Position numbers and translations under genes: made by a program
Assembly: GCA_002722055.1 (NCBI GenBank)
Contig: PBKD01000011.1
Coordinates: 791-64,790, forward strand
Length of the DNA stretch: 64,000 bases
Direction: 5' to 3'
Origin: Rhodospirillaceae bacterium
GTDB taxonomy: Bacteria > Pseudomonadota > Alphaproteobacteria > SHVP01
Notes under the pieces: model-generated
Told to the model about the DNA's origin: nothing
What the model saw: only the letters and a program-made list of their open reading frames with translations
Databases searched by the model: none
Part shown: piece by piece, positions 1,643 through 26,472 of the stretch
How positions within the stretch are numbered: the first letter of the stretch is position 1
Layout: the number at the start of each line of letters is the position of its first letter

Positions 1643-2224
1643 ATGAACCTTAGAAACTTTGAGATTATTCCAGAAAAACTTTCTAAAGAAAGTTTTTCTA
1701 ATTACGGAGATGTATTAGAACCTAGCGGAGATAGTATAAATAACAAAGATTTTTTAAAACTTGGTTATGCAAATATGTCTGATAACGTACCTAGTGAAAG
1801 AGTTGAAAAATTTGACGTATTGGACTACTGGGGACAAATTGCGAACATTTCACAGGAACCAATGAGATTTGGGTTTCTTAGGCCAAGAAAAAGAGCTTTT
1901 GAAGTCTCTTGGCTTGAAAGACATGTGAAAGGAACACAAACTTTTATACCTCTAGGAGGCGAAAAATCAATAATTACAGTTGGTAAAGCTAATGAAAATG
2001 ATAACCCTGAAGCTTTACCAGATTTATCTACAGTTAAAGCCTTTCTCCTTGATGGAGATAAGGGAATAAACTTACATCCAGGAACCTGGCACTGGACACC
2101 TTTTCCAATTAATTCAAAGTGTGACTTCATAATTCTTGTAAGAACAAATGTGAAAGATGATGACCTAAATTTTGTTGACTTGGAAAGCAGACTTAAAACA
2201 TTTATTAAAATAAATATTAATTGA
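1643..2224 (+). CDS. Ureidoglycolate lyase (AllA)-family cupin
   Basis: LSKESFSNYGDV at the N-terminus, LERH..GTQTFIPL, G.NLHPGTWH motifs. Confidence 0.75.
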   Translation: MNLRNFEIIPEKLSKESFSNYGDVLEPSGDSINNKDFLKLGYANMSDNVPSERVEKFDVLDYWGQIANISQEPMRFGFLRPRKRAFEVSWLERHVKGTQTFIPLGGEKSIITVGKANENDNPEALPDLSTVKAFLLDGDKGINLHPGTWHWTPFPINSKCDFIILVRTNVKDDDLNFVDLESRLKTFIKININ

Positions 2225-2409: not shown

Positions 2410-3177
2410 TTAAATTGATTTACCAGCCTTCTTTAATTCATCCAAAAGAACAGGCATTCCAAATGTAAATGTATGCATTCCTAAAACACTTACTAATTGA
2501 TATACTTCTACTATTTCTTGAACTGTTGCTCCATATTTTAATGCATTTTGAATATGAATTCTTAAACCAGGTTCATAAAGGTGAGTTGTAGCCACATCGA
2601 TGGCAATATAAATAAACTCTTTAATCTTAGGCTCTAATTTACCTTTTTGCCAAGGAATTGAAGAAAAATTTAGGTAGGCCTCAAAAAAGTCCGGATCAAT
2701 ACATAATAAATCATCCCAAAAAGGAGCCCAGTAACCTCTATTTTCTCTAAACTTTTCCTTTAGCGCAACTTGTCGATCATCATAGCTTCGGTTAATTTCC
2801 GAGTCTCTTCCAGCTTTTTTTAATTCATCAAGCAAGACAGGCATACCCATAGTAAATGTATGAAGACCTAAAACACTGGTTAATTGATATACTTCAGTGA
2901 TTTCTTCAACAGTAGCTCCATATTTAAGAGCATTCTCGATATGAATTCTGAGACCAGGTTCGTATAAATGAGTTGTAGAAACATCAATAGCTATATACAT
3001 AAATTCTTTGATCTTTGGGTCTAAAGGACCTTTCTGCCATGGAATAGCTGAAAAATTTAAGTAGGCATTAAAAAAATCAGCATCGACTTTTAATAAACCA
3101 TCCCAAAAATCATTCCAATAGCCTCTTTTTTTTATAAAATCATCTTTTAATTTTAACTGCTCTTCAGTGAATTCCAT
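2410..3177 (-). CDS. Carboxymuconolactone decarboxylase/AhpD-fold protein with two tandem CMD domains
   Basis: Two copies of LDPKIKEF.YIAIDV.TTHLYEPGLRIHI.NALKYGAT..EI.EV; no CxxC. Confidence 0.85.
   Translation of the reverse strand: MEFTEEQLKLKDDFIKKRGYWNDFWDGLLKVDADFFNAYLNFSAIPWQKGPLDPKIKEFMYIAIDVSTTHLYEPGLRIHIENALKYGATVEEITEVYQLTSVLGLHTFTMGMPVLLDELKKAGRDSEINRSYDDRQVALKEKFRENRGYWAPFWDDLLCIDPDFFEAYLNFSSIPWQKGKLEPKIKEFIYIAIDVATTHLYEPGLRIHIQNALKYGATVQEIVEVYQLVSVLGMHTFTFGMPVLLDELKKAGKSI
2422..3159 (-). repeat. Intragenic tandem duplication (copies about 2809-3159 and 2422-2772)
   Basis: Residues 7-123 against 136-252 align without gaps; 25 mismatches over 117 positions by hand count (about 79% identity). 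Confidence 0.95.
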
Positions 3178-3209
3178 TTTATCCTCCGTTAATTTAATTA
3201 TATTTTATT

Positions 3210-3455
3210 CTACGTATCAATTTCAGCAATAATTTTACCAACTTCATGCTCAACTTCACCATCTGCATCATAAAGTATTTTTGTTAGAGTGCCATTTGAT
3301 GGAGATTCAATTTCAAAGTTGGCTTTATCAGCTTCAACTGTAGCAATAAGCTCTCCTTCTTGAACTTTTTCACCTTCTTTCTTATGCCATTCAGAAATCA
3401 TTACATTCTCAATCGTTAAACCTAACTTTGGGACTTTCAATTTAATTTTTGCCAT
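3210..3455 (-). CDS. Stand-alone lipoyl-carrier domain protein
   Basis: 81 aa; VPKLG..I....ISEW.KKEGEKV..GE.IATVE-ADK-A..EIESP..G.L.KI, with the lipoyl-Lys at K44. Confidence 0.92.
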   Translation of the reverse strand: MAKIKLKVPKLGLTIENVMISEWHKKEGEKVQEGELIATVEADKANFEIESPSNGTLTKILYDADGEVEHEVGKIIAEIDT

Positions 3456-3472
3456 TTTAATTCTCTCTTTAT

Positions 3473-4255
3473 TTAAACACCTTTAAAATTAGGCTGTCTT
3501 TTTTCTAAAAATGCTTTCATACCTTCTTTTTGATCTTCAGTAGAAAATAATTTAATAAATTCAGCTAATTCATATTCTAAGCCCATATTAATATCACCTT
3601 CAGAACCTTCGTTTATTGTTCGTTTTATAGCTGCAAGAGCTAAAGGTGCCTTTTTAGCTAAGCTCTCAGATAATTTTTTTGTTTCCTTATCAAGGTCTTC
3701 ATTTGAAACTGAAAAGTTTGCTAAACCGAGTTCAACTGCTTTTTTAGAAGAGATAAATTCTCCTAGCATCAATATTTCTTTCGCTTTTAACCTTCCCATA
3801 TGCCTTGTTAACCTAACAGCAGCTCCTGCACCAGGGAAGACACCAATATTTATTTCTGTTAAGCCAAACCTTGAATCGTTTGAACAAATAACAAAATCAC
3901 AGCAAACTGTTAGCTCAGTTCCCCCACCAGTTGCCCAACCATTAACAGATGCTATAACCGGCTTAGGCGAGCTTTCAACAGCATTAAAAAACTTTAACCA
4001 TTTTCTATTATATGGTTCTATAAAATCTGAAGAAGCATCAGCAAGCTCACTTATATCTGCACCTGCAGAAAAAGCTCTCTCTCCTGACCCTTTAATTACA
4101 ATTACCCTTACTTCTTTTGAATTATCAAACTCTTTAATTGCCTGGTAAGATTCGTCTAAACATTTTTCGTTAATTGCATTTAGTTTGTTTGGTCGGTTGA
4201 AAATTAAATAACCAACACCACTTCTAGTATCTGTAATTATTGTCTCAAAACTCAT
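3473..4255 (-). CDS. Enoyl-CoA hydratase (crotonase family)
   Basis: FSAGADI oxyanion motif, GGGTEL and GLTEINIG (both catalytic Glu present), C-terminal EGMKAFLEKRQPNFKG. Confidence 0.92.
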   Translation of the reverse strand: MSFETIITDTRSGVGYLIFNRPNKLNAINEKCLDESYQAIKEFDNSKEVRVIVIKGSGERAFSAGADISELADASSDFIEPYNRKWLKFFNAVESSPKPVIASVNGWATGGGTELTVCCDFVICSNDSRFGLTEINIGVFPGAGAAVRLTRHMGRLKAKEILMLGEFISSKKAVELGLANFSVSNEDLDKETKKLSESLAKKAPLALAAIKRTINEGSEGDINMGLEYELAEFIKLFSTEDQKEGMKAFLEKRQPNFKGV

Positions 4256-4268
4256 AATATTAAATCCT

Positions 4269-5252
4269 TTATTGAAACAATTTCAATATTTTACTCTCAA
4301 TTGAAACCTGAGATGGCCTGTAGATATTTTCTAAATTTGGTGAGAAAGGTGATGGTGTAAATGGAGGAGTAATTCTTAAGGGGTTTTTAAATAAAATTTT
4401 ACTATCATATTCAACAACTTTAGAAATTACTTCAGAAGCAACACTACAAGGGGACTGAGACTCTTGCACTACGCACAATGATCCAGTCTTTGAAACTGAT
4501 TTTATCACTGTCTCAATATCTAAAGGACTAATACTTCTTAGATCAATTACTTCAGCATTTATACCATTATTACTTTTTAACGATTCAGCAACTTTCATAA
4601 CGATAGGAGTCATTTGAGAAAATGTTACAATTGTAATGTCCTTACCTTCAATTTTAACATCTGCTTTCCCAAGCGGGATTAAATAATCTTTAGTATCTTG
4701 AGGTACATCTCCTGAGGTTCCTACTAATTGTTTGCCAAGAAAACAAATAACTGGATCATCATCCCTAATAGCGGTTTTAAACAGTCCTAAAAGATCCATA
4801 GGAGTTGATGGAGATATTACTTTTAATCCAGGAATATGCGCGAACCATGATTCTAAACATTGTGAATGTTGAGGGCCTGCAGCTAAACCACCTCCACTAA
4901 AAGTGTAAAGTACCAAAGGAACTTTTACTTGGCCACCAAGCATATATCTCAATTTTGCTGCTTGATTGACTAATCCATCCATACAAGCCGTTACAAAGTC
5001 TCCAAATCCTATTTCAATTACTGGACGCAAACCTGTTGCAGCTGCTCCTACAGCCATCGTTACAAAACCACCTTCTGCTATAGGTGTGTCTCTCACTCTA
5101 AGTTCACCAAATTCATTATACAACCCTCTCGTTTGAGAAAAAATACCTCCACTTTCTCCAACATCTTCTCCTATTAGAACAACATTTTCATCTCGCGACA
5201 TCTCCTCACGAATTGCTCTATTTAAAGCTAAAAAGTATTTTAATTTACTCAT
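4269..5252 (-). CDS. TPP-dependent 2-oxoacid/acetoin dehydrogenase E1 beta subunit
   Basis: GEDV..GG.F..T.GL...FG..RV.DTPIAE, AAK.RYM.GG, QHSQ.LE.WF.HIPGLKV, EVIDLRSISPLD. Confidence 0.92.
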   Translation of the reverse strand: MSKLKYFLALNRAIREEMSRDENVVLIGEDVGESGGIFSQTRGLYNEFGELRVRDTPIAEGGFVTMAVGAAATGLRPVIEIGFGDFVTACMDGLVNQAAKLRYMLGGQVKVPLVLYTFSGGGLAAGPQHSQCLESWFAHIPGLKVISPSTPMDLLGLFKTAIRDDDPVICFLGKQLVGTSGDVPQDTKDYLIPLGKADVKIEGKDITIVTFSQMTPIVMKVAESLKSNNGINAEVIDLRSISPLDIETVIKSVSKTGSLCVVQESQSPCSVASEVISKVVEYDSKILFKNPLRITPPFTPSPFSPNLENIYRPSQVSIESKILKLFQ

Positions 5253-5254
5253 AT

Positions 5255-6226
5255 TTAGAAATCTGACGCATATACGTCCTCCAATAAAATCTCAGCGGAT
5301 GGGTTTTTTGACTGCTCTGCAAATTTTATTGCTTCAATAATTTTTTTATCCACAATTTCTTTAATTTTATCAATTTCAGTTTCAGAAATAATTTTCTCTT
5401 TCTTAATAAAATCCTGAAACTTAATAATAGGATCATCCCAGTTTTTTTCATCAAGCTCACTGCTTGGTTTATACTTCTGAGGGTCACCTTCATAATGACC
5501 ATGCCAACGATTTGTTTTAGCTTCAATTAAAGTTGGGCCATTTCCATTTCTAGCCAACTTGACTGCCTCCAATACATTTGAATAAACATCAACCAAATTA
5601 TTTCCATCAATAGTAATACCTTTAAATCCATATCCTTTTGACCTATCAGAAATATTTTTAATTGGCACATGGACATCGAACGGGCTTAACTCAGCATACT
5701 TATTAGATTCACAGAAAAATATTACTGGCAACTTCCAAATTCCAGCAATATTCATAGCTTCGTGAACAGCACCAGAGCCTGATGCACCTTCTCCAAAAAA
5801 AGCTAGGACTACATTATCTAATTTTTTTGTTTGAAAAGATAGTGCTGCACCTATAGCTAAAGTAGTCGACTGACCCACAATTCCATTAGCACCAAGAATT
5901 CCTGCGTTTACATCAGCTATATGCATAGAACCGCCTCTCCCCTTGGAATAACCAGTTTCTTTTCCGTACAATTCTGACATCATTCTATTTAAGTCAGCAC
6001 CTTTTGCTATACAGTGACCATGCCCTCTATGTGTACTAGTTATAAAGTCAGATTCTTGCAAAGCCTGACAGGCCCCAACTGCGCAAGCTTCTTGGCCTAA
6101 GGAAAGATGTACAAATCCAGGAAGAACTCCTTCTTTATACAATCTAGAGGTATTTTCTTCAAATAACCTTACCTCCCATAACTTCTCTAACAAAGTCTTT
6201 GCCAATGTAGAATCTATTTTAGTCAA
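5255..6226 (-). CDS. TPP-dependent dehydrogenase E1 alpha subunit (AcoA/PdhA-like)
   Basis: HLSLGQEA, THRGHGH, GRGGSMH, TPP motif variant GEGA..24..SN, and RWHGHYEGDP loop. TTG start follows an AAGGT SD. Confidence 0.92.
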   Translation of the reverse strand: MTKIDSTLAKTLLEKLWEVRLFEENTSRLYKEGVLPGFVHLSLGQEACAVGACQALQESDFITSTHRGHGHCIAKGADLNRMMSELYGKETGYSKGRGGSMHIADVNAGILGANGIVGQSTTLAIGAALSFQTKKLDNVVLAFFGEGASGSGAVHEAMNIAGIWKLPVIFFCESNKYAELSPFDVHVPIKNISDRSKGYGFKGITIDGNNLVDVYSNVLEAVKLARNGNGPTLIEAKTNRWHGHYEGDPQKYKPSSELDEKNWDDPIIKFQDFIKKEKIISETEIDKIKEIVDKKIIEAIKFAEQSKNPSAEILLEDVYASDF

Positions 6227-6240
6227 TTGTTTACCTTAAA

Positions 6241-7830
6241 TTATGTCTTGTAATCTTTAATATCAAATATCTGTACATCAGAATCATCTTTCCTCAATAA
6301 GTATTTTTGAATTTTTTGATTAGGTGTCTTAGGCATTTCATCCCTAAACTCTATAAATTTTGGTATCCAGAATTTAGGCATTTGTTCCCTGCAGATATTC
6401 CATATTTCATCAGGAGTAATATTATTTCCCGGCTGAGGAATAATTACAACTTTTATTTCATCTTCTCCTAACTCTGAAGGCACTGCAACAGCCGCACATT
6501 CTAAAACTTTTGGACTAGAGTTAATCACTCGTTCAACCTCAAATGATGATATATTTTCTCCTCGCCTTCTAATAGAATCGTTCTTTCTATCTACAAAATA
6601 AAAAAAACCATCTTTATCAACCCTACCGTTATCGCCAGTATGGAACCATAAATTCTTAAAAGCTTTAAGACTTTCATTTGGCATTTGATAGTATTGACTC
6701 ATCATAGAGAAGGGTTGTTTTGGCCTTACAACAATTTCTCCAACTTCTCCTATAGAAGCTTCCTCATCTTTTTCATTAAAGACTGAAACTTCATACGAAT
6801 CTTGATTAGCCTTACCACAGGAACCTGTGGCAGGGTTAATTTCAAGAGGGGTATATGTAACTATTCCAGTCTCAGTTGCACCATAAACTTCAATAATCCT
6901 ACAATTAAACCTCTTTTCAAATTCCGCATTTCTTTGCCCTATATAAAAGTACTTTGCAGGCACGTCTTTATCACCTGGGTCCTCCGGCTGCTTAAGTAAA
7001 ATAGGTATCATAGAAAAAATACCATGAACATGTGTTGCATTGTAATGCTTTACATCGCTCCAAAAATTACTAGCAGAAAATTTTTCTACAAATGATATTT
7101 CATTTCCCATAATTATATTTGGCAACACACCTAACCATGATGCTATTGCATGAAATAAAGGAAGAGGCGTAAAAAGTCGATCAGCATAATTATAATCACA
7201 TGCTTTAATCCAATCCAAAGCAAATGTAATAACATGACAATTTGTTGCTAGAACCCCCTTTGAAGGGCCAGTGGTACCAGAGGTAAATGAAATTGCATGA
7301 GGGTCCGTATAATGCAAAGAGCTTTTGATATGATTATCTTTTGCATTCAACAATTCATCAAAGTGAATTCTAAGAAAGTTTTCATTTAAACTAGAAGTTC
7401 CATAAGGGTGATCTTTTCTCTCATGTTCTATTACATGTGTGATATTTGAGAGTTGGCCACTTACCTGATCAAGTCTAACTATATAATCTGAATCTAAAAT
7501 AATATGAGTTACGTCTGCTTTATTCAATTGGTATTGAAGAATATCACCTTTATAATCAGTATTTATTGGTACATATATACCACCTAGTTTTGAAACAGCT
7601 AACCAAGAAAAAATAAAAGCTGGAGAATTTCTTAACATTAAAGCAACTTTTGTACCCTTGGTAACACCCAAAGAACAAAGAAAATTTGCACATGAGTTTA
7701 CTTTATTATTGAGCTCTAAGTAGGTAATTGACCAATCACCTGAAGATGCAAATTTATTATCACCAAATTTTTCAACAGAACGGTCCAGCATACTATTTAT
7801 TGTACGTTCTTCAAGGCTATATGTATTCAT
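6241..7830 (-). CDS. ATP-dependent acyl-CoA ligase (CaiC-like AMP-binding enzyme)
   Basis: FTSGTTGPSKG, YGATETG, WFHTGD, RRRGENISS, TPNQKIQK. The ATG at 7830 is preferred over the TTG at 7851. Confidence 0.9.
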   Translation of the reverse strand: MNTYSLEERTINSMLDRSVEKFGDNKFASSGDWSITYLELNNKVNSCANFLCSLGVTKGTKVALMLRNSPAFIFSWLAVSKLGGIYVPINTDYKGDILQYQLNKADVTHIILDSDYIVRLDQVSGQLSNITHVIEHERKDHPYGTSSLNENFLRIHFDELLNAKDNHIKSSLHYTDPHAISFTSGTTGPSKGVLATNCHVITFALDWIKACDYNYADRLFTPLPLFHAIASWLGVLPNIIMGNEISFVEKFSASNFWSDVKHYNATHVHGIFSMIPILLKQPEDPGDKDVPAKYFYIGQRNAEFEKRFNCRIIEVYGATETGIVTYTPLEINPATGSCGKANQDSYEVSVFNEKDEEASIGEVGEIVVRPKQPFSMMSQYYQMPNESLKAFKNLWFHTGDNGRVDKDGFFYFVDRKNDSIRRRGENISSFEVERVINSSPKVLECAAVAVPSELGEDEIKVVIIPQPGNNITPDEIWNICREQMPKFWIPKFIEFRDEMPKTPNQKIQKYLLRKDDSDVQIFDIKDYKT

Positions 7831-7866
7831 AACTAAAAATCCAAAATCCAAATTTTATTGATCAAT

Positions 7867-9012
7867 CTAACAACCTAAACGTTTAGCAATAAAAAGTTTC
7901 ATTATTTCATTTGTACCTTCGCCTATCTCAAGCATTTTAGCCTCTCTGAAAAATCTGTTTACAGTATACTCTTGCATAAAACCATAACCGCCATGAATTT
8001 GAAATGCATCAAGCGACGCTTGTGTAGCAACATTTGTACAAAATAATTTTGTCATTGCAGCTTCGTTTTGGCATTCTTCCCCACTACTCTCTAGAAAAGC
8101 AGCATATAAGGTCATTCTCCTAGCAACCTCACAATTTGTTGCCATATCAGCCAGTTTTGCTTGAATTAGTTGATAGTTTGATATTGGTTTTCCAAATTGC
8201 TCTCTTTCTTTTGCATAAGCTAATGAATGATCAAGGCAACCCTGTATCAGTCCTGTAGAAATAGCACCAAAAGCTATTCTCCCAAGGTTTAGACCACTTA
8301 AAGCTATTCTTAAACCACTTCCAATTTCTCCAATAATATTTTCTGAAGGTATTCTACAGTCATCAAAAACTAACTCATTATTAGTCATGCCATGCCATGC
8401 CATCTTATTCCAGGACTGCCCCAGTTCAAAACCATCTACACCTTGGGGTATTGAGAAACTTGTAATTTCATTTTTTCCATTTTCTTTTTGACCGGTAACT
8501 GCCATAAGAACTAAGCCATCACTTATTGAAGTACCTGCATTACTAATAAATGTTTTTGTCCCATTAATTGACCAAACATTTCCTGACTTAACCGCTTTAG
8601 TTTTTATCCCTGCTGCATCAGAGCCTGCGCCAGGTTCAGTAAGTCCAAATGCACCTAACTTCTCACCTTTAGCATAAATAGGTAAATACTTAGATTTAAG
8701 TTCATCATGAGCAAATTTTAAATAAATATTACTTACTAAAATATGAACCTGCCAAATAAGAGCAAAAGTATTTGAAACTCTTGATACTTCTTCTAATGCC
8801 AGTATATAACTCAGAGTATCAAGCGCTGAACCGCCATATTTTTCAGGTAATAACATACCAGACATTCCCAACCCAGACCATTTTTCCCATAATTCATAAG
8901 GGAACTCATGAGTTTCATCCATTTTCTCTTGAGCAGGAACAATCTCATTATTTGTAAAATCTCTTACCATTTTTTGAATTTCCGTCTGTTCTGCTGTCAA
9001 TCGAAAATCCAT
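7867..9012 (-). CDS. Acyl-CoA dehydrogenase
   Basis: [52 protein letters not shown] (catalytic Glu). Confidence 0.95.
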
Positions 9013-9134
9013 AACAACAACCTCCCTTAGATATATTATCAGAATAACTAAAAAATTTATTTATTTATCTTATTTATTACATAAAATATACTATTAGAAA
9101 TTAAAATTGAGAACAATTAATAATTATATTTATT

Positions 9135-10328
9135 ATGACTAATGTAACAATAGCCGGCACAGGAATGGTTCAATTTGGTAAATTTCCAAATAGAACCATG
9201 AAATCTATGGTGAATTCAGTTGTGGTTGAAGCACTTAATGATTCAAATTGCTTACCTGATGATATTGATCAAGTATTTTTTGGAAATGCTGCATCAGGAT
9301 TTTTGACTGGACAAGAATGCATTCAAGGTCAGGTAGCTCTAAGAAATACTGGTCTTCTTGGGAAACCAATTATTAATATCGAGAATGCTTGCGCTTCATC
9401 ATCTACAGCGTTTAACTTAGCAACAATGGCCATAGAATCAGGGCAAAGTGATGCTGTTCTTGTAATTGGCGCAGAAAAAATGACATCAAATGATAAAGAA
9501 GCTCCACTTCGTGCTTTAGAAACTGCAGCTGATATTGAAGAATTAGAACATTTTAAAAAAATAATTAGCTCAGAAGGAGCAGGTTCTGGATCAATTTTTA
9601 TGGATTTATATGCTAGTTTGGCAAGGGATTATATGGAAAAAAAAGGTGTAACAAATGATGACCTTGCTCTTGTTGCGGTAAAACAAAGAAAAGCTGGTGC
9701 ACTAAATAAACTTGCGCAATTTCAAGAAGACATTTCTATTTCTAACGTTTTAACAAGTAGAATGATATCTGATCCATTAAGGTTAATGATGTGTTCATCA
9801 ATTGGTGATGGGGCAGCAGCCCTAGTTTTAATGAGTAAAGATTTTGCTAAATATAAAGATAATGAATATGTAAGTGTTAAAGCATGCTCTTTAAAATCTT
9901 CAAACGACAAGGCTACTGGATTTATTCCTGCACCTACTCGAGCAGCATCAGACGCTTACGAAAAATCTGGAATAGGACCTGAAGACATTGATGTAGCAGA
10001 AATTCATGATGCTGCAGCACCAGCTGAATATATAATTTATGAACAGCTAGATTTTTGCAAAGAAGGACAAGCCGTTCAACTATTAAAATCAGGTTATACT
10101 TCACTGGATGGTAAAATGCCTGTCAACCCTAGTGGAGGATTAATAAGCCGAGGACATCCAATTGGGGCAACAGGTGCCGCGCAACTTGTAGAACTATCAA
10201 ACCAATTAAGGAATAGATCTGGAAAAAGACAAAGGAAAAATGCAAAAATAGGCCTTGCTGAAAATGCTGGCGGTTGGATTAGAAATGATGTAGCGGCAGC
10301 ATGTGTAACTATTTTAGGAAAAGATTAA
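9135..10328 (+). CDS. SCP2/nsLTP-type thiolase-family protein
   Basis: ENACASSS, DGAAA, EIHDA, NPSGGL.SRGHPIGATG, AENAGG. Confidence 0.88.
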   Translation: MTNVTIAGTGMVQFGKFPNRTMKSMVNSVVVEALNDSNCLPDDIDQVFFGNAASGFLTGQECIQGQVALRNTGLLGKPIINIENACASSSTAFNLATMAIESGQSDAVLVIGAEKMTSNDKEAPLRALETAADIEELEHFKKIISSEGAGSGSIFMDLYASLARDYMEKKGVTNDDLALVAVKQRKAGALNKLAQFQEDISISNVLTSRMISDPLRLMMCSSIGDGAAALVLMSKDFAKYKDNEYVSVKACSLKSSNDKATGFIPAPTRAASDAYEKSGIGPEDIDVAEIHDAAAPAEYIIYEQLDFCKEGQAVQLLKSGYTSLDGKMPVNPSGGLISRGHPIGATGAAQLVELSNQLRNRSGKRQRKNAKIGLAENAGGWIRNDVAAACVTILGKD

Positions 10329-10375
10329 ATTATGTTATGTTTGAATATATATTTATTTGTTCTTGGGAGTAATAG

Positions 10376-12445
10376 ATGAAATATAGAATAGCCGTTGATA
10401 CTGGTGGGACGTTTACAGATGTTGTGGTAGCTGACGAAAAAGGGTTTCTTACTGTAGGAAAATCTTTAACAACCTTAGATAGATATTATAATGGCTTTAA
10501 AGCAGCATTAGATAACGCAGCATTATCTCTTAATACTTCAGGAGAGCATTTAATAGATAATTGTGAAGTGCTAATTTATGGAACAACACGATCTACAAAT
10601 GCTATTGTTGAAAATAAGGTTGCAAAAACAGCGCTACTAGTAACAGAAGGCTTTCCAGATATACTCACCTATAGACATGGTGGAAAACAAGGGGTTTTTG
10701 ATCTAGCTGTTGAGTTACCAGACCCTTATATTCCCCGAAGACTTACCTTTGAAGTGCCAGAAAGAATAAATGCTGAAGGTGAAATTGAATTAGAACTAAA
10801 TACAAATAAAACTGAGGAAATAATTAACAATCTAAAAAATATGGACATTGAAGCTGTAGCAGTTTCTTTGCTGTGGTCAATTTCTAACCCAGCGCATGAA
10901 GTTAAAGTAGGTGAACTTTTAAAAAAATTAACCCCAGATATTCCGTTTACTCTAAGTCATAAACTAAACCCTATAATTAGGGAATTCCCAAGAACTTCTT
11001 CCACTGCAATGGATGCTTCACTTAAGCCACTTATGCAACAACACCTTAGAGATCTTGAAGAAGACCTTAGAGGCTCAAATTATAAAGGTGAAATTTTAAT
11101 AAGTGTATGCTCAGGTGGAGTAATGCATGTTCAAGATGTAATTGAAAAACCAATTTACACTGTGAAATCAGGACCAGCCATGGCACCTGTAGCAAGTATT
11201 GCATACTCATCAGCTGATAATCTAGGAGACGATATAATTGTTGTTGATACTGGTGGCACAACCTTTGACGTAAGTTTAATAAGAGAAGGACAAATTAAAT
11301 ATTCACGAGACACATGGTTGCTGGGAGAATGGACAGGGCATCTCCTTGGGTTATCCTCTGTTGATATTAGAAGTGTTGGAGCTGGTGGAGGTTCTATTGC
11401 TTGGATTGACTCTGGAGGTCTCTTAAGAGTCGGTCCTCAAAGCTCAGGAGCAAACCCAGGCCCTGCATGTTATAATCAAGGTGGAACAGAACCTACAGTA
11501 ACAGATGCTGCTGTTATGTTAGGATATATAGACCCAGAACACTTTCTTGGCAGTCGAATGAAACTTAATCAAGAAGCAGCAAAAAAAGCTATTCAAAAAA
11601 TTTCTAAACCTCTCTCCTTATCTATAGAAGAAACAGCAGATGCTATAATTACTCTTGCTGGAGAGAATATGATTAAATCAATCCACGAAATTACAGTCCA
11701 AGATGGTGTGAACCCTGCAGAAAGTATTTTAGTTGCCGGTGGAGGAGCCGCTGGCCTAAACATAGTACCTATTGCCAAATCACTTGGATGTAAAAAAATA
11801 TTAATCCCAAGAACTGCTGGGGCTCTAAGTGCTTGTGGGGGGCAATACTCTAATGTTGTCGCTGAATTTAGTGGAAGCTACTATTCACATACAGAAGACT
11901 TTGACTATGAAGGGGTTGATAAAACATTAAATGATATAAAAAGTCGACTCACAGAATTTAAGAATTACCTACAATCTAAGAATATAAATGAATTTGATGA
12001 AGAGTATTTTTTAAGTTCAAGGTACTTAAACCAACAATGGGATATGGAAATACCTTTACCTGTAAACGAAATTAAAAATGCTCAACAATTACAAATAGTT
12101 TCTAAAGCCTTTCATGATACACATTTCCAAAGATATGCTGTGAAGGAAGAAGATAGCATAATTGAATGTATGGATTGGAAAGGAAGACTTATTGCTATTT
12201 TAGAAAAACCAACAATTCCTAAAATATCTGTTTCAGATAAAAAAATTGAAAAAAACCGAGAGTCTGAATCTTACTTTAGTGAAACCGGTAAAGTTGCTAC
12301 ACCTGTTTATTTAGGAGAAAGGCTTTTACCTGGAATGGTAATTAATGGTCCTGCTATAATCGAGGAACCAACCACAACAGTTGTAATCTACCCTAATAGT
12401 AAAGCAGAAATTACTGAAACAAGAAATTATTTAATTCATGTTTAA
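10376..12445 (+). CDS. Hydantoinase A / oxoprolinase / acetone-carboxylase-beta family ATP-binding subunit
   Basis: DTGGTFTD, SGPA, DTGGTTFDVS, GAGGGSIAW, VGPQSSGA.PGPACY..GG.EPTVTDA, GPAIIEE.TTTVVI.P. Confidence 0.93.
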   Translation: MKYRIAVDTGGTFTDVVVADEKGFLTVGKSLTTLDRYYNGFKAALDNAALSLNTSGEHLIDNCEVLIYGTTRSTNAIVENKVAKTALLVTEGFPDILTYRHGGKQGVFDLAVELPDPYIPRRLTFEVPERINAEGEIELELNTNKTEEIINNLKNMDIEAVAVSLLWSISNPAHEVKVGELLKKLTPDIPFTLSHKLNPIIREFPRTSSTAMDASLKPLMQQHLRDLEEDLRGSNYKGEILISVCSGGVMHVQDVIEKPIYTVKSGPAMAPVASIAYSSADNLGDDIIVVDTGGTTFDVSLIREGQIKYSRDTWLLGEWTGHLLGLSSVDIRSVGAGGGSIAWIDSGGLLRVGPQSSGANPGPACYNQGGTEPTVTDAAVMLGYIDPEHFLGSRMKLNQEAAKKAIQKISKPLSLSIEETADAIITLAGENMIKSIHEITVQDGVNPAESILVAGGGAAGLNIVPIAKSLGCKKILIPRTAGALSACGGQYSNVVAEFSGSYYSHTEDFDYEGVDKTLNDIKSRLTEFKNYLQSKNINEFDEEYFLSSRYLNQQWDMEIPLPVNEIKNAQQLQIVSKAFHDTHFQRYAVKEEDSIIECMDWKGRLIAILEKPTIPKISVSDKKIEKNRESESYFSETGKVATPVYLGERLLPGMVINGPAIIEEPTTTVVIYPNSKAEITETRNYLIHV

Positions 12446-12464
12446 TATTTATTAAGGAAAAAAC

Positions 12465-14264
12465 ATGCTTCAAAATAAAGATACAAACCCTAAAATTAAT
12501 GCAGTTGAATTAGCTATTATGGCAAATAGGATGGATGCAGTTGTAAGAGAAATGACCAACACCATGCTCTTAGCAGCAAAGTCTTCAGTTCTTGGAATTG
12601 CTAGAGATTTTTCTTGTGCAATTATTTCTCATGATGATCAAGTTCTTGCAACAGCTGAGGCTTTACCGATTCATGTTTTGGGAATGGATTCTCAATTCTC
12701 CTATATAAGAAAATATCACCCTGACTTTAAAGAAGGAGATGCTTTTCTTGATAATGACCCATACGCTGGAAGTTCTCATGCTGCAGACCATACAACCTTA
12801 GTACCTGTATTTTATGATGGAGTCCATTGCTTTACAGTAGGTGTAAAAGCACATCAAGCAGACACAGGTAACTCTTTACCAACAACTTATATGGCTACAG
12901 CTACAGATGTTTATAATGAAGGTTCTTTAATTTTTCCTGGTGTTAAGATTCAAGAAAATTATAAAGATAATCAAGATATAGTTAGAATGTGTAAAAAAAG
13001 AATACGCGTACCGGATCAATGGTTTGGTGATTACTTAGCTGCTATTGGTTCAGCTAGAATTGGAGAAAGAAGTTGTAAAGAAATAATAAAAAAATACGGT
13101 GTAGAAAAAATAATTCAATTTCAAAAAGAATGGTTAGATTATTCTGAAAGGCTAACAGCTGACGCAATTAAAAAGATGCCTAAAGGGAAATTAAAAACTA
13201 AGGGGTGGCATGACCCTATGGATCCTATCTTACCTGACAGAATTTATGTTAATTTAGATTTAGATATAGACCCTGATAAAGCAAAAGTTACGGTTGACCT
13301 TAGAGACAATATAGATTGTATAGATGCAGGACTTAATCTAACAGAAGCAACTGCTACAATGGCTGCTGCTCAAGGAGTATTCCATTGTTTAAAAGAAGAT
13401 ATCCCAGCAAATAGTGGTAGTTTAAGAAGAATTGAAGTTCTATTAAGAGAAGGCTGTTTAGTAGGTATTCCTAAATTTCCCCATAGTTGCTCAATGGGAA
13501 CAACAAATTTTACTGATGTCATTATCAACACCACTATGTCATCTTTTGCAGAATTAGGCGAAGGTCTCGGTTTTGCTCATGGCAATTATTGTAATACTGC
13601 AGCTTCTGGAGTAGCTTCTGGCACGGACCCTAGAAGAGGTTCTGAACCTTTTGTGAACCAAATGTTTATGATGGGCGGCGGTGGAGGAGCATCTGCTACA
13701 ACCGATGGTATGCACTATTACTTTGTCCCGGTAGGAGCCGGTCTTTTATACAGGGACTCAGTAGAAATCAATGAACAAAGATTCCCTATAATGATTAAAT
13801 CTATGAAACTTCTCGAGGACTCTATGGGTCACGGAAGGAGAAGAGGTGGCCCTGCAACAGAAGTAATCATGGGTCCTAGAGGAAGTAAAATGAAAATTTT
13901 ACATGCTTGCAATGGATTAGAAACTGCACCTAAAGGTGTAAGAGGAGGAACAGAGTCTAAATTAGGAGAGAATGTTCGGATTGCCCCAGATGGGTCAGAA
14001 CACCCTTACCCTGCTGTAATGAATATAGACTTAGAACCAGGTGATTTACTTAGGTCACGTGACCAAGGTGGCGGTGGGTACGGTGAAGCAACAGAAAGAG
14101 AGATTGAAAGAGTATTAAAAGATGTCAAAAATAAATTTATAAGCAAAGAAATTGCACTCACCGTGTATGGTGTTGTAATCATCGGTAGCGAAAAAAATGA
14201 TTCATTAGATGTTGATATAAAAGCTACTGAGAAAAAGAGATCAGAAATTCGGAAAAAAAATTAA
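12465..14264 (+). CDS. Hydantoinase B / oxoprolinase family catalytic subunit
   Basis: RDFSCAI, DNDPY.GSSHAAD, KAHQADTG, EG..FPG.K, GGGG.GAS...DG, GGGGYG. Confidence 0.93.
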   Translation: MLQNKDTNPKINAVELAIMANRMDAVVREMTNTMLLAAKSSVLGIARDFSCAIISHDDQVLATAEALPIHVLGMDSQFSYIRKYHPDFKEGDAFLDNDPYAGSSHAADHTTLVPVFYDGVHCFTVGVKAHQADTGNSLPTTYMATATDVYNEGSLIFPGVKIQENYKDNQDIVRMCKKRIRVPDQWFGDYLAAIGSARIGERSCKEIIKKYGVEKIIQFQKEWLDYSERLTADAIKKMPKGKLKTKGWHDPMDPILPDRIYVNLDLDIDPDKAKVTVDLRDNIDCIDAGLNLTEATATMAAAQGVFHCLKEDIPANSGSLRRIEVLLREGCLVGIPKFPHSCSMGTTNFTDVIINTTMSSFAELGEGLGFAHGNYCNTAASGVASGTDPRRGSEPFVNQMFMMGGGGGASATTDGMHYYFVPVGAGLLYRDSVEINEQRFPIMIKSMKLLEDSMGHGRRRGGPATEVIMGPRGSKMKILHACNGLETAPKGVRGGTESKLGENVRIAPDGSEHPYPAVMNIDLEPGDLLRSRDQGGGGYGEATEREIERVLKDVKNKFISKEIALTVYGVVIIGSEKNDSLDVDIKATEKKRSEIRKKN

Positions 14265-14821
14265 ATTTTCTTTTTTGCAAATTTTGACCATTGTTTTTCT
14301 ACGACCACTCCTGTTGAGTCTAAAGCATAACATGAATCTATAAAGCCGGGTTTTTTTTCCTCAGTGCTATCTTCAATTGCGATATCATTTTTATACAAAT
14401 AAATTGTAAGATATGCAGTAGTAGCTAATGGAGCTAATAATAATTCTACAATATGAGTGCACCCTTTAACCCCTCCTAATTTTTCTTTTACTGTTTTTTT
14501 CCAACCACCGCCAATTTTACATCCAATTAAGACGTTAAAATTTGAAATAACTTTACTACAAACACCTGGGTAAGGGTGAGAATCTGAAGCTACTTCAATT
14601 TCTTTTACAACATAGTTTTCATCTATAGCTAGCCTTGCTTGCATATGATGCATTGGTTGACCTGGATGTATCTCGATCCATTTATTCTTATATATATTTG
14701 AACGAATATCTTTAACATACCCTTCTATCTCATAAAGATTATCCGGTCGGATGTAACCTTTGACTTCAATGTTTCTTGTATGAAGCAATTGCCGATCATG
14801 AAGAGGTATAGATAGAGGCAT
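14261..14821 (-). CDS. DUF2889-family protein
   Basis: RQLLHTR.I...GY.R.D.LYEIEG, PMHHM.ARL.ID....V, HPYPG.C, GG..GCTH..EL, IDSCYAL. Confidence 0.8.
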   Translation of the reverse strand: MPLSIPLHDRQLLHTRNIEVKGYIRPDNLYEIEGYVKDIRSNIYKNKWIEIHPGQPMHHMQARLAIDENYVVKEIEVASDSHPYPGVCSKVISNFNVLIGCKIGGGWKKTVKEKLGGVKGCTHIVELLLAPLATTAYLTIYLYKNDIAIEDSTEEKKPGFIDSCYALDSTGVVVEKQWSKFAKKKI

Positions 14822-14905
14822 AGCAAAAGTCCTTAAATGATTGTTTTAATTTTCTATAAATAATATAATAAAGTTATCTAAATTTTTTTCAATTAGGAAA
14901 ATTTA

Positions 14906-16276
14906 TTGGAAAATATAAATAATAACATTAATTCTGTTTTAAAATTGCTTGAGGCAAATAACTTAGATAAAGCAAAGTTATTACTAGATATTATAATTGA
15001 ACAACAGCCAGAAAATCCATTAATTCTTTTCCTTTTTAGTCAATTTTATTTAAAGAAAAAAAAATATAAAAAATCAATTCATTTTCTAGAAAGGGTAAAT
15101 ATAGCAGCACCTAATAAACCAAATACAAAAATTGCTCTTGCTAACCTTTATTTGAAGATAAGTAATTACTCAAAATGCTATTCAATTTTGTGCGAAATTG
15201 AGGAACTAGCTAAAAATATTGTAGCATTTTTTCAGTTAAAAGGTAATTACTATAAAGCTATTGGCGACATAGATAATTCGATAATAAATTATGAAAAGGC
15301 CTTAAAGTTGCTTCGGAACTCAAGATTTTGGGGTAACAAATATAGTGGTAAAACAATTATAGACCCTATTCAATATAACACATTTAGGTATGCATCTAAA
15401 TCTAAACTTGAGCATGACCTCAATCAAATTGATTACTTAATTAAAACTGTAAATTTACCGATTCATAAAGAGCAAAAGAACCTTAGGGAAGTCATAAATT
15501 CTTGGTCAAAAAGTGTGGATGATGATAAATTAATTTATCTCGATGAGAAAAACTATAACTTAATTAAAAATTTTTATAATAGAGTGATGTATATATCTCA
15601 GTATACAAAAACTAATCATTCAGCACTTAATGAAAAAACTAACTTCAGTAATTTAGAAACAAAATATTTTGAATCTGATCAGCCTATAGTAGTTATTGAT
15701 AATTTTCTCTGTGAGGAAACATTGCAATTACTATGGAAATACTGCTTAGAGTCAACTATTTGGTTCGACTCTAAGGAGAATGGTGGTTACTTAGGAGCAT
15801 ATATGACTGATGCATTCCATCATCCAGCACTAATTCAAATTGCTAAAGATTTACGTCAAAAGATGCCTAAAATTTTTGATAAAAAAAAATTATGTCAAAT
15901 GTGGGCATTAAAATATAAATCTGGAGGAAAAGGAACAAGGCTTCATGCTGATGATGCATTGGTAAATTTAAACTTTTGGATTACACCTGATGAATCTAAA
16001 CAAAATTTAGATAATAATTCAGGCATAGAAATTTATGATAAGCCCGTTCCAGATGATTGGAGATTTGAAGAATATAATCAATCAGATTTAAAAATTAAAG
16101 AGCACCTTATAAAAACAAAGCCAGAAAAAATTGAAATACCTTATAAACAAAATAGAGCTGTTCTATTTGATTCAAAGTTTATTCATAAGAGTCAAAGTAT
16201 TAATTTTAAAAAAGGGTACACTAACCAAAGAATAAATATTACAATGCTTTTTGATAAACAGATCAGGAATTTCTAA
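14906..16276 (+). CDS. TPR-repeat protein with C-terminal 2OG-Fe(II) oxygenase-like domain
   Basis: N-terminal TPR-like helices; HADDALVNLNFWITPD, YKQNRAVLFDS..IH, RINITMLF give the HxD...H...R pattern. TTG start. Confidence 0.75.
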   Translation: MENINNNINSVLKLLEANNLDKAKLLLDIIIEQQPENPLILFLFSQFYLKKKKYKKSIHFLERVNIAAPNKPNTKIALANLYLKISNYSKCYSILCEIEELAKNIVAFFQLKGNYYKAIGDIDNSIINYEKALKLLRNSRFWGNKYSGKTIIDPIQYNTFRYASKSKLEHDLNQIDYLIKTVNLPIHKEQKNLREVINSWSKSVDDDKLIYLDEKNYNLIKNFYNRVMYISQYTKTNHSALNEKTNFSNLETKYFESDQPIVVIDNFLCEETLQLLWKYCLESTIWFDSKENGGYLGAYMTDAFHHPALIQIAKDLRQKMPKIFDKKKLCQMWALKYKSGGKGTRLHADDALVNLNFWITPDESKQNLDNNSGIEIYDKPVPDDWRFEEYNQSDLKIKEHLIKTKPEKIEIPYKQNRAVLFDSKFIHKSQSINFKKGYTNQRINITMLFDKQIRNF

Positions 16277-17036
16277 AAATATAATTTGGGTCTGTTTTAT
16301 TATCAACTATATAACCTAAACTCTCCAAATCTTTCACAATCTCTAAGTGTTTATCTATGTTCTGATTAATTTCAATTAAAATAGTTTTTACTTTACCCTT
16401 TTTTATAGTCTGCATCCCGCCAGCTATAACCTTATCTTCAAAACCATCAACATCTATTTTTATGTGATCAGGAGAAGGAATGCCTCTTTCAACTAATGAA
16501 TCAATTGTCATAGCCATACATCCTTGAGTAAAAACTGGTTTAAACTCTTCTAATTTTTCACTATAAACATCAACTGTATTCATTGGTTTATCAAAACCAT
16601 GCAAAGCCTGCCCTGCAGTAAAACTTGATAAATTCAATTCACTAATTTTCTCCTCATCAGACATTGCAAAGCACAAAGCAGTTACCTTATCTTTTAAATT
16701 ATTTAGTAAAATATTCTTATTTAGGACTGCATAATTCTGAGATTCAGGCTCGATTGCAATTACATTAATACCTTTTGTTGCTGCTGCCCAAATTGAGTAC
16801 ATTCCAACATTTGCCCCAATATCAAACATAATATCATCTTGTTCAAAATTACTTATCCATTCTAAAGTTTTTGGCTCATTAATATATAGCCTCTCAGCTC
16901 TCCATTTTGTTGGTATAGTTGGAGTACTGAAAATAATTTTTTTTCCATTATTTTCCTCGATATGTACAGGGTGAATCTGAGCATATTGCTCTAGTGTTAA
17001 TTTTAATTTTTGGACATCCGGGCTAATATTACTCAT
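16263..17036 (-). CDS. FkbM-family methyltransferase
   Basis: FDIGANVGMYS, IEPESQN, HIKIDVDGFE.KV..G. Confidence 0.9.
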   Translation of the reverse strand: MSNISPDVQKLKLTLEQYAQIHPVHIEENNGKKIIFSTPTIPTKWRAERLYINEPKTLEWISNFEQDDIMFDIGANVGMYSIWAAATKGINVIAIEPESQNYAVLNKNILLNNLKDKVTALCFAMSDEEKISELNLSSFTAGQALHGFDKPMNTVDVYSEKLEEFKPVFTQGCMAMTIDSLVERGIPSPDHIKIDVDGFEDKVIAGGMQTIKKGKVKTILIEINQNIDKHLEIVKDLESLGYIVDNKTDPNYIFRNS

Positions 17037-17144
17037 AAGAACTCCTATAGAATATCAGATAATTACTAAATAAAAAGTAATGCATGTATCTTAATATAAC
17101 GTTAACTTTATTATATAAAAATATGGAAAATTAGGATAATTATT

Positions 17145-17891
17145 ATGATTAACAATTCTTTAAATATAACTACCAGAAATATTGAGCAAAAAATTGTTAC
17201 AAATGATCCCTTTTCTCATTTTTACATTAACAATGTATTTCCGGAAGAATTATTTGAATCATTACATGATAATTGGCCTGAGATTAATCTATTTGAAAAC
17301 GGAAAACAGTTAGGCATTAACATTGAGGCAGAACGTTTTTATTTTAAACTTAGCAAAGAAAATATTAAAAACCTTTCTGGAGAAAAACGGTTTTTTTGGG
17401 AAAAAATAGAAAAATGGTTAACATGCGATGAGCTTGTTATAATGCTATTAAATAAATATAAAAAAGATATAGACTTTTTAAAAAAAAATAATATAGAAGA
17501 TTACTATCGAAATAATTTAAAAACAAAAGTTACCTTTAATACTTCATTAGTTATGGATGTGGGGGGGTATGAATTAAAACCTCATGCTGATGACCCTCGT
17601 GTAATTCTGAATTTATTATTTTATCTTCCTTATGATGAACTAGGAAAGGAATTAGGAACATCTATATATACTTCCAAAGATAAAGACTTATCAAAAAAAT
17701 ACGAAAACCAAGAGGTAGCACGCTTCCCAAGGGATTGGTTTAACTTAGTCAAAACTTTTCCATATAAACCTAATAGTTTATTTTCATTTGTACGGTCTAA
17801 TGAATCGTTCCATGGTGTTGAGTCCTCAGAGAACAAATCTTATACCAGAAGATTGATGCTGCTTTCATTAATGCTTGAGAATAAATCATAG
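17145..17891 (+). CDS. 2OG-Fe(II) oxygenase-family protein
   Basis: DPF.HFYI.NVFP, PHADD, LLFYLP, GTSIY, F...N.SFHGV, RRL (HxD...H...R). Confidence 0.75.
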   Translation: MINNSLNITTRNIEQKIVTNDPFSHFYINNVFPEELFESLHDNWPEINLFENGKQLGINIEAERFYFKLSKENIKNLSGEKRFFWEKIEKWLTCDELVIMLLNKYKKDIDFLKKNNIEDYYRNNLKTKVTFNTSLVMDVGGYELKPHADDPRVILNLLFYLPYDELGKELGTSIYTSKDKDLSKKYENQEVARFPRDWFNLVKTFPYKPNSLFSFVRSNESFHGVESSENKSYTRRLMLLSLMLENKS

Positions 17892-17918
17892 ATTATTATT
17901 TAAATCATTATAATTATA

Positions 17919-18584: not shown

Positions 18585-18592
18585 TGTTATAA

Positions 18593-19750: not shown

Positions 19751-19753
19751 TTT

Positions 19754-21579: not shown

Positions 21580-21585
21580 TTTATA

Positions 21586-22680: not shown

Positions 22681-22682
22681 TT

Positions 22683-23486: not shown

Positions 23487-23623
23487 TTATTCACCAAAAG
23501 TTGTAATATTTAAAATGAATTTACAACAACTAGGTTACTAATCAGTTAATTTTGAGATTTCTAGAGTCTATCCGCGAATAAAAAAATATTATTATAAAAG
23601 TTAAAGATTAGTTAATTTTTCAT

Positions 23624-24622: not shown

Positions 24623-24637
24623 TTATATCTCACTTTT

Positions 24638-26385: not shown

Positions 26386-26472
26386 TTCTGCCCTTTTAAA
26401 TTTGTATTTTATTTTTGAGTAAATATAGTTAATAAATATTTAATATATTTTTATTTCAATAAATTTTAATCA

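Follow-up and report, generated by a model that had tools for sequence, protein, structure and literature searches.

Gene Organization of the Locus

The gene cluster described here lies at positions 2410–14821 of a 64,000-nucleotide stretch of contig PBKD01000011.1 (assembly GCA_002722055.1, positions 791–64,790 of the forward strand) from the alphaproteobacterium Rhodospirillaceae bacterium; this whole stretch is referred to below as the window. All eleven open reading frames (ORFs) of the cluster were found at the coordinates and in the families given by an earlier reading of the window made from its letters alone (hereafter, the original prediction), as judged from the ORF list and Pfam. 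The leftward operon (− strand) consists of seven genes separated by 2–32 nucleotides (nt). Its first gene encodes a short-chain-type acyl-CoA dehydrogenase (ACAD) of 381 amino acids (aa) (7867–9012; Pfam Acyl-CoA_dh_N/M/1), followed by genes for an AMP-forming acyl-CoA ligase (6241–7851; AMP-binding and AMP-binding_C), a thiamine pyrophosphate (TPP)-dependent E1α (5255–6226; E1_dh), an E1β (4269–5252; Transket_pyr and Transketolase_C), a crotonase-type enoyl-CoA hydratase (3473–4255; ECH_1), a free lipoyl protein of 81 aa (3210–3455; Biotin_lipoyl) and a tandem CMD-fold protein in which the Pfam CMD domain is matched in two stretches (2410–3177). The rightward operon (+ strand) contains three genes separated by 19–47 nt, beginning with an SCP2-type thiolase (9135–10328; Thiolase_N and Thiolase_C_1) and continuing with Hydantoinase/oxoprolinase A (HyuA; 10376–12445; Hydantoinase_A) and Hydantoinase/oxoprolinase B (HyuB; 12465–14264; Hydantoinase_B). 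A divergent promoter region of 122 nt with a GC content of 14.8% (9013–9134) is common to both operons. Promoter-like hexamers occur there on both strands, the counts returned by promoter and terminator scans equal those for shuffled sequence, with no enrichment, and no known RNA or riboswitch was identified in this gap with Rfam.

As the original prediction had also stated, Pfam detected no 3-hydroxyacyl-CoA dehydrogenase, E2 core, E3, regulator or transporter in the block, and tblastn with E2, E3, short-chain dehydrogenase/reductase (SDR), iron-containing alcohol dehydrogenase (Fe-ADH), DUF1330 and TetR queries taken from related clusters gave no match across the 64 kb. The cofactor and active-site motifs are intact in the crotonase, ACAD, HyuA, HyuB, lipoyl protein and E1α, and the cluster genes look functional on the basis of these motifs. 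None of the cluster proteins passes the curated equivalog cut-off for a characterized enzyme in NCBIfam, and full-text literature searches returned no published description of this gene combination. The term “island” that was applied to the block does not suit it, since mobility genes are absent, the GC content rises only slightly (0.349, compared with 0.316 for the window overall), and a relative with a related single amplified genome (SAG; L088) carries the cluster at the same position.

The stretch 2410–12400 is present in many marine metagenomes. Marine metatranscriptome contigs cover, at low depth, parts of the CMD, E1α/E1β, ligase, ACAD and HyuA genes as well as the gap with the 5′-end of the thiolase gene; DNA carry-over is possible, and these matches provide weak evidence of expression. 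Two of the metatranscriptome contigs (X25 and X30) match the ACAD gene (window 7982–8208) over only 21–22 nt at either end of a 184-nt segment, a pattern that most likely reflects divergent orthologues and not a deletion.

Conservation of the Leftward Operon

For comparison, 80 species-level genome loci around the tandem CMD gene and the contigs of selected homologues were fetched, and gene identities were assigned to them with tblastn/blastx and Pfam. The order ACAD-(ligase)-E1α-E1β-crotonase-lipoyl protein is kept at 50–76% identity per protein, with the tandem CMD gene adjacent or within a few kb, and the same gene set and order occurs in at least 11 other loci belonging to different taxonomic orders. 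The carriers include Porticoccaceae, Luminiphilus and Cellvibrionales (L005, L006, and L009–L011), a Rhodospirillales metagenome-assembled genome (MAG; L017), a SAR116 SAG (L019), a Rhodobacteraceae MAG (L023/L087), Zavarzinia compransoris (L001), a 1-Mb metagenome contig (L004), the related SAG (L088), and Paracoccus sp. (L175), the last of which was found by a search from the E1α side. Four further carriers of E1α orthologues are Xanthobacter, Azospirillum canadense, Variibacter, and a Rhizobiaceae MAG, in which E1α and CMD homologues probably share contigs, since the contigs bearing them are equal in length. In the plasmid collection, the matches to CMD and to E1α were at most 52% identical in each case, and no orthologues were identified. 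The original prediction had named a random assortment of genes as the result that would undo it; the leftward genes co-occur across genomes, and the operon is a conserved unit.

Several accessory genes recur around this unit, namely an SDR directly after the CMD gene (L004, L005, L013, L018, and L023), an Fe-ADH, DUF1330 or EthD, MaoC, a TetR_C_24 regulator, an SCP2-type thiolase that is accompanied by a DUF35 partner in some cases, a CoA-transferase of family III, and an additional ligase and crotonase. A control set of 79 ordinary E1α-E1β loci (44–56% identity, mostly with GDG in place of GEG) was collected by a metagenome scan with the generic pattern STHRGHGH. In most of these loci E2 follows the E1 genes, and in many E3 does as well, while none of the 79 has an ACAD, crotonase, CMD or HyuA gene beside E1. 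The only member of the present E1 clade recovered in the same scan (L095; GEG/HYEGD, 58%) shows the arrangement SDR-ACAD-E1α. Because it is absent from the 79 ordinary loci, the gene association is specific to this E1 clade and not general to E1. The cluster is real, widespread and uncharacterized, and is built from familiar enzyme families.

E1 Clade and Free-Standing Lipoyl Protein

All E1α orthologues read FFGEGAS...CE[SVCA]N...RWHGHYEGDP, whereas ordinary E1α proteins read FFGDGA...CENN...GHS. Both signatures are present in 118 of the 120 best E1α homologues (at least 52% identical), and each of the remaining two has one of them. In the window protein, the TPP/Mg motif takes the variant form GEG(X27)N and is accompanied by HGH, and the score against the pyruvate dehydrogenase (PDH) E1α model TIGR03182 is 319.7 bits, below the cut-off of 393.85. 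By these signatures, E1α is a distinct clade of its own. E1β contains transketolase-like domains, and its orthologues, 58–69% identical, adjoin E1α in every case.

The closest described systems are the acetoin dehydrogenase proteins AcoA/AcoB/AcoC/AcoL and the α-β type of PDH E1, which share with the cluster a heterotetramer-type E1α (~320 aa) with E1β, a lipoyl-lysine acceptor and, in some versions of the cluster, E2 and E3. They differ in having GDG where the cluster has GEG and HGHS where it has HGHYEGDP; furthermore, the window has a separate 81-aa lipoyl protein and no E2 or E3, and its E1 genes are embedded between those for ACAD and crotonase. AcoC is a lipoyl domain fused to an acetyltransferase of the α/β-hydrolase fold, whereas the lipoyl protein of the window stands alone. 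Acetoin-type E1α-E1β-E2(-E3) operons were also encountered beside phosphotransferase system (PTS) sugar transporters and sugar-binding regulators on a Brevibacillus plasmid (L091) and a Rhizobium plasmid (L092), which suggests a sugar-derived ketol as the substrate of that separate E1 group.

The 81-aa protein carries the lipoyl-lysine motif EADKA, which its orthologues keep as such or as a close variant (ESDKT or QADKA), and lacks the biotin motif MKM; it is accordingly predicted to be lipoylated. In all proteobacterial loci it is free-standing, including that of Paracoccus, which also has a full E2. The lipoyl domain is a separable module. The core proteins of the Paracoccus locus are 58% (ACAD), 56% (E1α), 58% (E1β), 53% (crotonase) and 60% (lipoyl protein) identical, and they adjoin a canonical E2 with lipoyl and catalytic domains, E3, a ligase, TetR, MaoC, an old yellow enzyme, EthD and ETF-β/α. 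Two ORFs are called for the E3 gene at this locus (3332–4808), one covering a Pyr_redox_2 part of 343 aa and the other a dimerization part of 156 aa, and fragments of insertion sequences (IstB and DDE_Tnp_1) lie nearby; the gene may be frameshifted or decaying. In Bacillus sp. V3-13 (L033), an E1α with the clade signature is followed by E1β, an E2 core, E3, crotonase, ligase and ACAD, with a tandem CMD and TetR upstream. The lipoyl domain is unusually placed in this locus (13978–16786): E2 is limited to its E3-binding and catalytic domains, and the lipoyl domain is found at the N-terminus of E3.

The lipoate-dependent module had been regarded as incomplete in the original prediction. That view does not hold for the clade, members of which sit with both E2 and E3 in Paracoccus and in Bacillus sp. 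V3-13, and because E2 and E3 accompany the same clade there, the E1 probably works in a normal lipoyl-dependent cycle. Most simply, the E2 and E3 of the window organism would be encoded elsewhere in its genome and supplied in trans. Two candidates for local replacements were considered and rejected: the crotonase as a substitute for E2, since it has both hydratase glutamates and also accompanies genuine E2 proteins in other loci, and the CMD protein as an AhpD-like oxidant of dihydrolipoyl groups replacing E3, since it has no CxxC motif and its only Cys is not conserved.

Acyl-CoA Enzymes and the Tandem CMD Protein

The best NCBIfam match of the ACAD is the acryloyl-CoA reductase AcrC (388 bits; cut-off 640), and its best matches in the Protein Data Bank (PDB) are butyryl-CoA dehydrogenase-type enzymes. 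The catalytic Glu lies in the sequence GEGT, in which Gly replaces Tyr, and LEIGEGT is kept in 15 of 15 distinct orthologues (58–83% identity). Loss of this Tyr (YEG to GEG) has been tied to α-substituted or bulky substrates, and methylsuccinyl-CoA dehydrogenase is listed among the GEG enzymes (PMC8360864). The crotonase retains both catalytic glutamates (in GGGTEL and LTEINIG), has 3-hydroxypropionyl-CoA dehydratase (5zai; 219 bits) as its best PDB match, and is encoded in every case between E1β and the lipoyl gene. The ligase scores 433 bits against PRK06155 (cut-off 722), and its orthologues, 53–69% identical, adjoin the tandem CMD gene in 11 loci. The thiolase scores 329 bits against PRK06064 (cut-off 420) and has PDB matches to SCP2-thiolase, an archaeal thiolase and BbsB. 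ACAD, hydratase and thiolase are thus present in the window without the 3-hydroxyacyl-CoA dehydrogenase of a complete β-oxidation cycle.

The demethylation enzymes for dimethylsulfoniopropionate (DmdB/DmdC/DmdD) match the cluster in family and were tried as an identification, which was not taken up, as no profile supports it; DmdC is also much longer than the 381-aa ACAD.

The tandem CMD protein is a true member of the family represented by 2q0t (259 bits), a structural-genomics entry without an assigned function, and literature searches revealed no function for the 2q0t family. Its homologues number more than 1,400; the top 120 are 53–98% identical to it and come from Alphaproteobacteria, Chloroflexi, and a haloarchaeon, and the genome loci examined around CMD also include Gammaproteobacteria, Bacillota, and other phyla. 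The CMD fold is shared with PcaC and AhpD, from which the protein differs in its score against the PcaC model TIGR02425 (29.3 bits; cut-off 155.7), in its lack of the AhpD CxxC motif (it contains a single, non-conserved Cys), and in the duplication of the domain. In Haladaptatus halobius (L003; 10001–11436), the tandem CMD gene adjoins that for a small protein of the Acetone_carb_G family; a ligase and a canonical E1α-E1β, E3 and E2 set, with an E1α that lacks the GEG signature, lie 4–9 kb from it. The haloarchaeal homologues of 2-oxo acid dehydrogenases mostly lack an assigned substrate, and one paralogue is needed for isoleucine (PMC8305020).

HyuAB, Thiolase, and Other Peripheral Enzymes

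HyuA scores 533 bits against the caprolactamase model CapA (cut-off 1000) and 284 bits against ApcC, the latter also below its cut-off, and HyuB scores 248 bits against CapB (cut-off 1000) and 98 bits against ApcD. Among PDB entries, caprolactamase (6yra; 373 bits) ranks above N-methylhydantoinase (313 bits), acetophenone carboxylase (268 bits) and acetone carboxylase (188 bits) for HyuA. The ASKHA phosphate-1, phosphate-2 and adenosine motifs and the Asp-His-Asp-His metal site have been described for CapAB (PMC8453981). HyuA contains the ATP motifs DTGGTFTD, DTGGT and GANPGP, and HyuB contains the metal-site motifs HAADH and AHQAD, with the first Asp (in ARDFS) read by eye; the pair thus shows the defining features of the hydantoinase/oxoprolinase superfamily, the ATP motifs in A and the metal site in B. 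No ORF for a carboxylase small subunit (Acetone_carb_G or Apc ε) was found between 9135 and 14821. The best model and PDB scores, the motifs and the lack of this subunit indicate that HyuAB is a lactam- or hydantoin-type hydrolase and not a carboxylase. It resembles CapAB, 5-oxoprolinase and N-methylhydantoinase in its two-subunit organization, ATP motifs, metal tetrad and best matches, and differs from CapAB in its scores and in the absence from HyuB of the vicinal Cys-Cys of the caprolactamase pocket.

The original prediction had treated HyuAB and the thiolase as part of one fixed pathway set and had compared the block with the anaerobic indoleacetate (iaa) cluster of Aromatoleum aromaticum. 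The comparison extends to three families only, namely a HyuAB-like hydrolase (IaaCE), a CoA ligase and an acyl-CoA dehydrogenase. The iaa cluster is defined by the B12-dependent mutase IaaGH, the CoA-transferase IaaL and the decarboxylating dehydrogenase IaaF with a GGG motif (PMC8360864), and the analogy fails on all of these: no mutase or transferase domain is encoded in the block, and its ACAD has GEG instead of GGG. Conversely, both the E1/lipoyl module and a CMD protein are lacking from iaa.

With respect to the fixed set, HyuAB adjoins the core in three loci only (the window, L088, and L004), and the thiolase shares 63% identity with its L088 counterpart and just 34–41% with those in the other clusters. 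HyuB relatives (61–68% identical) are found next to an amidase gene and aromatic-ring genes in L089 and by themselves in L090, in both cases without any core gene. These data raise the alternative that two unrelated units share a promoter region, the thiolase-HyuA-HyuB operon being an independent lactam- or hydantoin-opening unit, for example for nitrogen salvage, that is there by chance. This explanation deserves serious weight and is nevertheless unlikely, given several links between HyuAB and the core. L004 represents an independent lineage in which HyuAB adjoins the core. In L093 and L094, where HyuB is 67–68% identical to that of the window, an Fe-ADH is encoded directly upstream of HyuAB and is 54–56% identical to the Fe-ADH of the Porticoccaceae core cluster; Zavarzinia has such an enzyme (53–54%) beside CMD. 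HyuA-family genes are also enriched near CMD across phyla, homologues being present in 8 of the 80 CMD-centred genome loci and in none of the 79 control loci (Fisher p = 0.0065). An instance is Neobacillus vireti, with the order lipoyl-E3, crotonase, ligase, ACAD, transporter, CMD, SDR, SDR, HyuA', HyuB', thioesterase.

Other enzymes recur around the core in a comparable manner. A luciferase-type monooxygenase and an esterase lie near CMD in L075 and L081, and the same pair lies beside HyuAB in L093; in Paracoccus the old yellow enzyme and EthD adjoin the E1 core, and in Xanthobacter they adjoin CMD. HyuAB, and the thiolase with it, is accordingly read as a variable accessory, one of several interchangeable peripheral enzymes, and not as part of the constant core.

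Proposed Pathway and Alternative Explanations

The explanation that is preferred, tentatively and at somewhat less than even confidence, is that the cluster is the conserved core of an uncharacterized catabolic pathway for a short, probably α-substituted carboxylic acid, into which lineage-specific ring-opening enzymes feed. A short α-substituted substrate is suggested by the ACAD, which is nearest to the butyryl-CoA type and has GEG for YEG in all orthologues; the SCP2-type thiolases, the DUF35 partner, the AMACR-family CoA-transferase and MaoC in relatives also point to α-substitution. Under this model, two entries would lead to one acyl-CoA. In one, the ligase would activate the free acid; in the other, E1α-E1β would oxidatively decarboxylate the 2-oxo acid that is one carbon longer, transferring the acyl group onto the free lipoyl protein, from which an E2 core would hand it to CoA while E3 would re-oxidize the lipoyl group, both being encoded elsewhere in the streamlined genome. 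The GEG-type ACAD and the crotonase would then convert the acyl-CoA to a 3-hydroxyacyl-CoA, and the tandem CMD protein may catalyze a proton-transfer step (decarboxylation, or isomerization of a double bond or keto-enol pair) on a pathway intermediate. The SCP2-type thiolase would cleave the oxidized product, with the dehydrogenase for thiolysis encoded elsewhere in the genome. Peripheral enzymes would deliver the substrate, here the ATP-dependent, lactamase-like HyuAB, and in other lineages Fe-ADH, SDRs, the luciferase-type monooxygenase with the esterase, or old yellow enzyme.

A partial analogy is offered by operons that combine a branched-chain 2-oxo acid dehydrogenase (BCKDH) with downstream ACAD and crotonase. 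The bkd operon of Bacillus subtilis couples free-acid activation (Buk/Ptb) with a 2-oxo acid dehydrogenase, and the cluster may likewise feed one acyl-CoA from both sources, which would then be dehydrogenated and hydrated. It differs from bkd in that its E1 is not of the BCKDH type, activation is by an AMP-forming ligase, and it has tandem CMD, a free lipoyl protein and HyuAB in addition. The substrate suggested in the original prediction, a cyclic amide or a branched ketone or acid, is compatible with the lactamase-like HyuAB, the GEG-type ACAD and the monooxygenase, esterase and old yellow enzyme genes of related loci. Glutarate or 2-oxoadipate (with CMD as a glutaconyl-CoA decarboxylase), methylsuccinate-type dicarboxylates, alicyclic acids of the Ali/Bad type, and butenolide or 4-oxo routes are sub-hypotheses that each fit part of the gene set. 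A bolder version is rather doubtful while retaining a real chance of being correct: a lipoate-dependent pathway widespread in marine and soil bacteria, in which the E1 clade would load a free lipoyl carrier with an acyl group, drawn from a new 2-oxo acid or set free when an intermediate bound to CoA undergoes acyloin-type cleavage, CMD would catalyze a reaction new to its fold, and a common, hitherto overlooked class of small cyclic or branched metabolites (lactams, lactones and alicyclic ketones) would be mineralized after lineage-specific ring opening.

Several observations weigh against the dual-entry pathway. No enzyme reaches an equivalog cut-off, hence the profiles show no substrate, and the 3-hydroxyacyl-CoA dehydrogenase required by a thiolytic route was found by neither Pfam nor tblastn in the 64 kb. 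The close HyuAB relatives that occur without core genes count in the same direction. The ACAD, ligase and crotonase of the Bacillaceae are only ~30–39% identical, and the ACAD lacks GEG, so that this locus is an analogue and not a strict ortholog. The free lipoyl protein is kept beside a complete E2 in Paracoccus, a feature for which the pathway offers no explanation. Finally, E1α is nearer to PDH- and acetoin-type E1 (184 bits) than to branched-chain E1 (~120 bits), and is 48–52% identical to the acetoin-type E1 that adjoins PTS genes; because of this closeness, acyloin cleavage is equally compatible with the data.

The main rival on function is accordingly acyloin cleavage within a CoA pathway. 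The ligase, ACAD and crotonase would turn a 4-oxo (or 4-hydroxy) acid into 3-hydroxy-4-oxoacyl-CoA, an α-hydroxyketone like acetoin, which an AcoAB-like E1 would split, the acyl half passing to the lipoyl protein and an aldehyde of the 3-oxopropionyl-CoA type being released. The position of the E1 genes, always wedged between ACAD and crotonase, would suit such a step, although gene order does not give reaction order. The grouping of E1α with PDH- and acetoin-type enzymes, several of its orthologues being labelled acetoin:DCPIP oxidoreductase by JGI, and the best NCBIfam match of the lipoyl protein, the AcoC lipoyl domain, are also consistent with it; the clade nevertheless departs from acetoin-type E1 in both the TPP motif and the active-site loop. 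Chemistry of the PcaC/PcaD type, combining CMD and α/β-hydrolase proteins, classically gives 4-oxo acids from enol-lactones, and hydrolases adjoin CMD in L075 and L081, while both the window and L005 have one at the margin of the cluster, but these flanking hydrolases are not conserved. No E1 that acts on an acyloin bound to CoA is known to us, and this explanation is judged distinctly unlikely. It corresponds to the claim in the original prediction that the TPP/lipoyl module performs a C–C cleavage outside known pathways, which is one of two readings of the module; the other, oxidative decarboxylation of a 2-oxo acid to the acyl-CoA formed by the ligase, is at least as likely.

An ordinary known route is a weaker rival and improbable: isoleucine/valine-type 2-oxo acid catabolism or a C3 route (2-oxobutyrate/propionate to propionyl-CoA, acryloyl-CoA and 3-hydroxypropionyl-CoA) would account for the match to families of branched-chain amino acid catabolism (E1, ACAD, and crotonase, with SDR and thiolase in relatives), for the best matches of ACAD and crotonase to C3 enzymes, and for the thioesterase, Fe-ADH and aldehyde dehydrogenase in relatives, which fit a 3-hydroxy-acid branch, and the haloarchaeal paralogue needed for isoleucine offers a parallel (PMC8305020), but the scores are far below the equivalog cut-offs, E1α resembles PDH more closely than BCKDH and stands as a separate clade, whose signature is missing from the haloarchaeal E1 (L003), and neither route uses tandem CMD, a free lipoyl protein, HyuAB, old yellow enzyme or EthD.

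Flanking Genes

The last of the eleven ORFs encodes a DUF2889 protein (14261–14821, − strand; Pfam DUF2889), which converges on hyuB and overlaps its stop codon by 4 nt. No homologue was found in the 84 related loci searched and no relative in the PDB, and no such gene is called in L088, a syntenic relative at 74% identity, where a TPR gene directly follows hyuB. The DUF2889 protein is probably unrelated to the cluster and is not counted as a member of the system.

On the other side, an α/β hydrolase (678–1547, − strand) lies between the cluster and a TauE permease and has weak matches to a macrolide esterase (148 bits) and PcaD (70 bits); beside it, 1643–2224 (+ strand) encodes a weak member of the ureidoglycolate-lyase family (74 bits; cut-off 212). 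Neither is conserved beside the cluster, and the edge of the Porticoccaceae locus L005 carries an unrelated hydrolase. The identification of the hydrolase as a detached catalytic domain of AcoC was rejected on its score of 47.9 bits, compared with 307 (PRK14875), and on the lack of a homologue in the 84 loci searched. To the right of the cluster, a surface-polysaccharide run on the − strand (~16263–26400) encodes an FkbM methyltransferase, a PglD-like acetyltransferase, a DegT aminotransferase and a cytidylyltransferase; part of it is syntenic in L088, and it looks like a variable region of the O-antigen type. The sole Rfam match in the window is a two-piece (permuted) tmRNA of the alphaproteobacterial type (49204–49503, + strand; RF01849, 242 bits; RF04321, 143 bits). 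It establishes the class of the source organism, which, given also the low GC content of the window and the marine metagenome matches, is a low-GC alphaproteobacterium of marine origin.

Significance

The system is a lipoyl-dependent E1 system of a distinct clade that is built into an acyl-CoA oxidation operon together with a stand-alone lipoyl protein. Should an ordinary branched-chain or C3 acid prove to be the substrate, what remains is a variant form of operon organization. If the proposed pathway is confirmed, it would provide a function for a well-conserved E1 clade, the genes of which are now labelled as pyruvate or acetoin dehydrogenase, and for the tandem-CMD family, which has a structure (2q0t) without one. 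A lipoyl complex that uses a stand-alone lipoyl protein with borrowed E2 and E3 would bear on the assembly of such complexes and on their annotation, and a substrate class would be named for abundant marine heterotrophs, including Porticoccaceae, SAR116, roseobacters, and the low-GC alphaproteobacterium studied here, as well as for soil bacteria.

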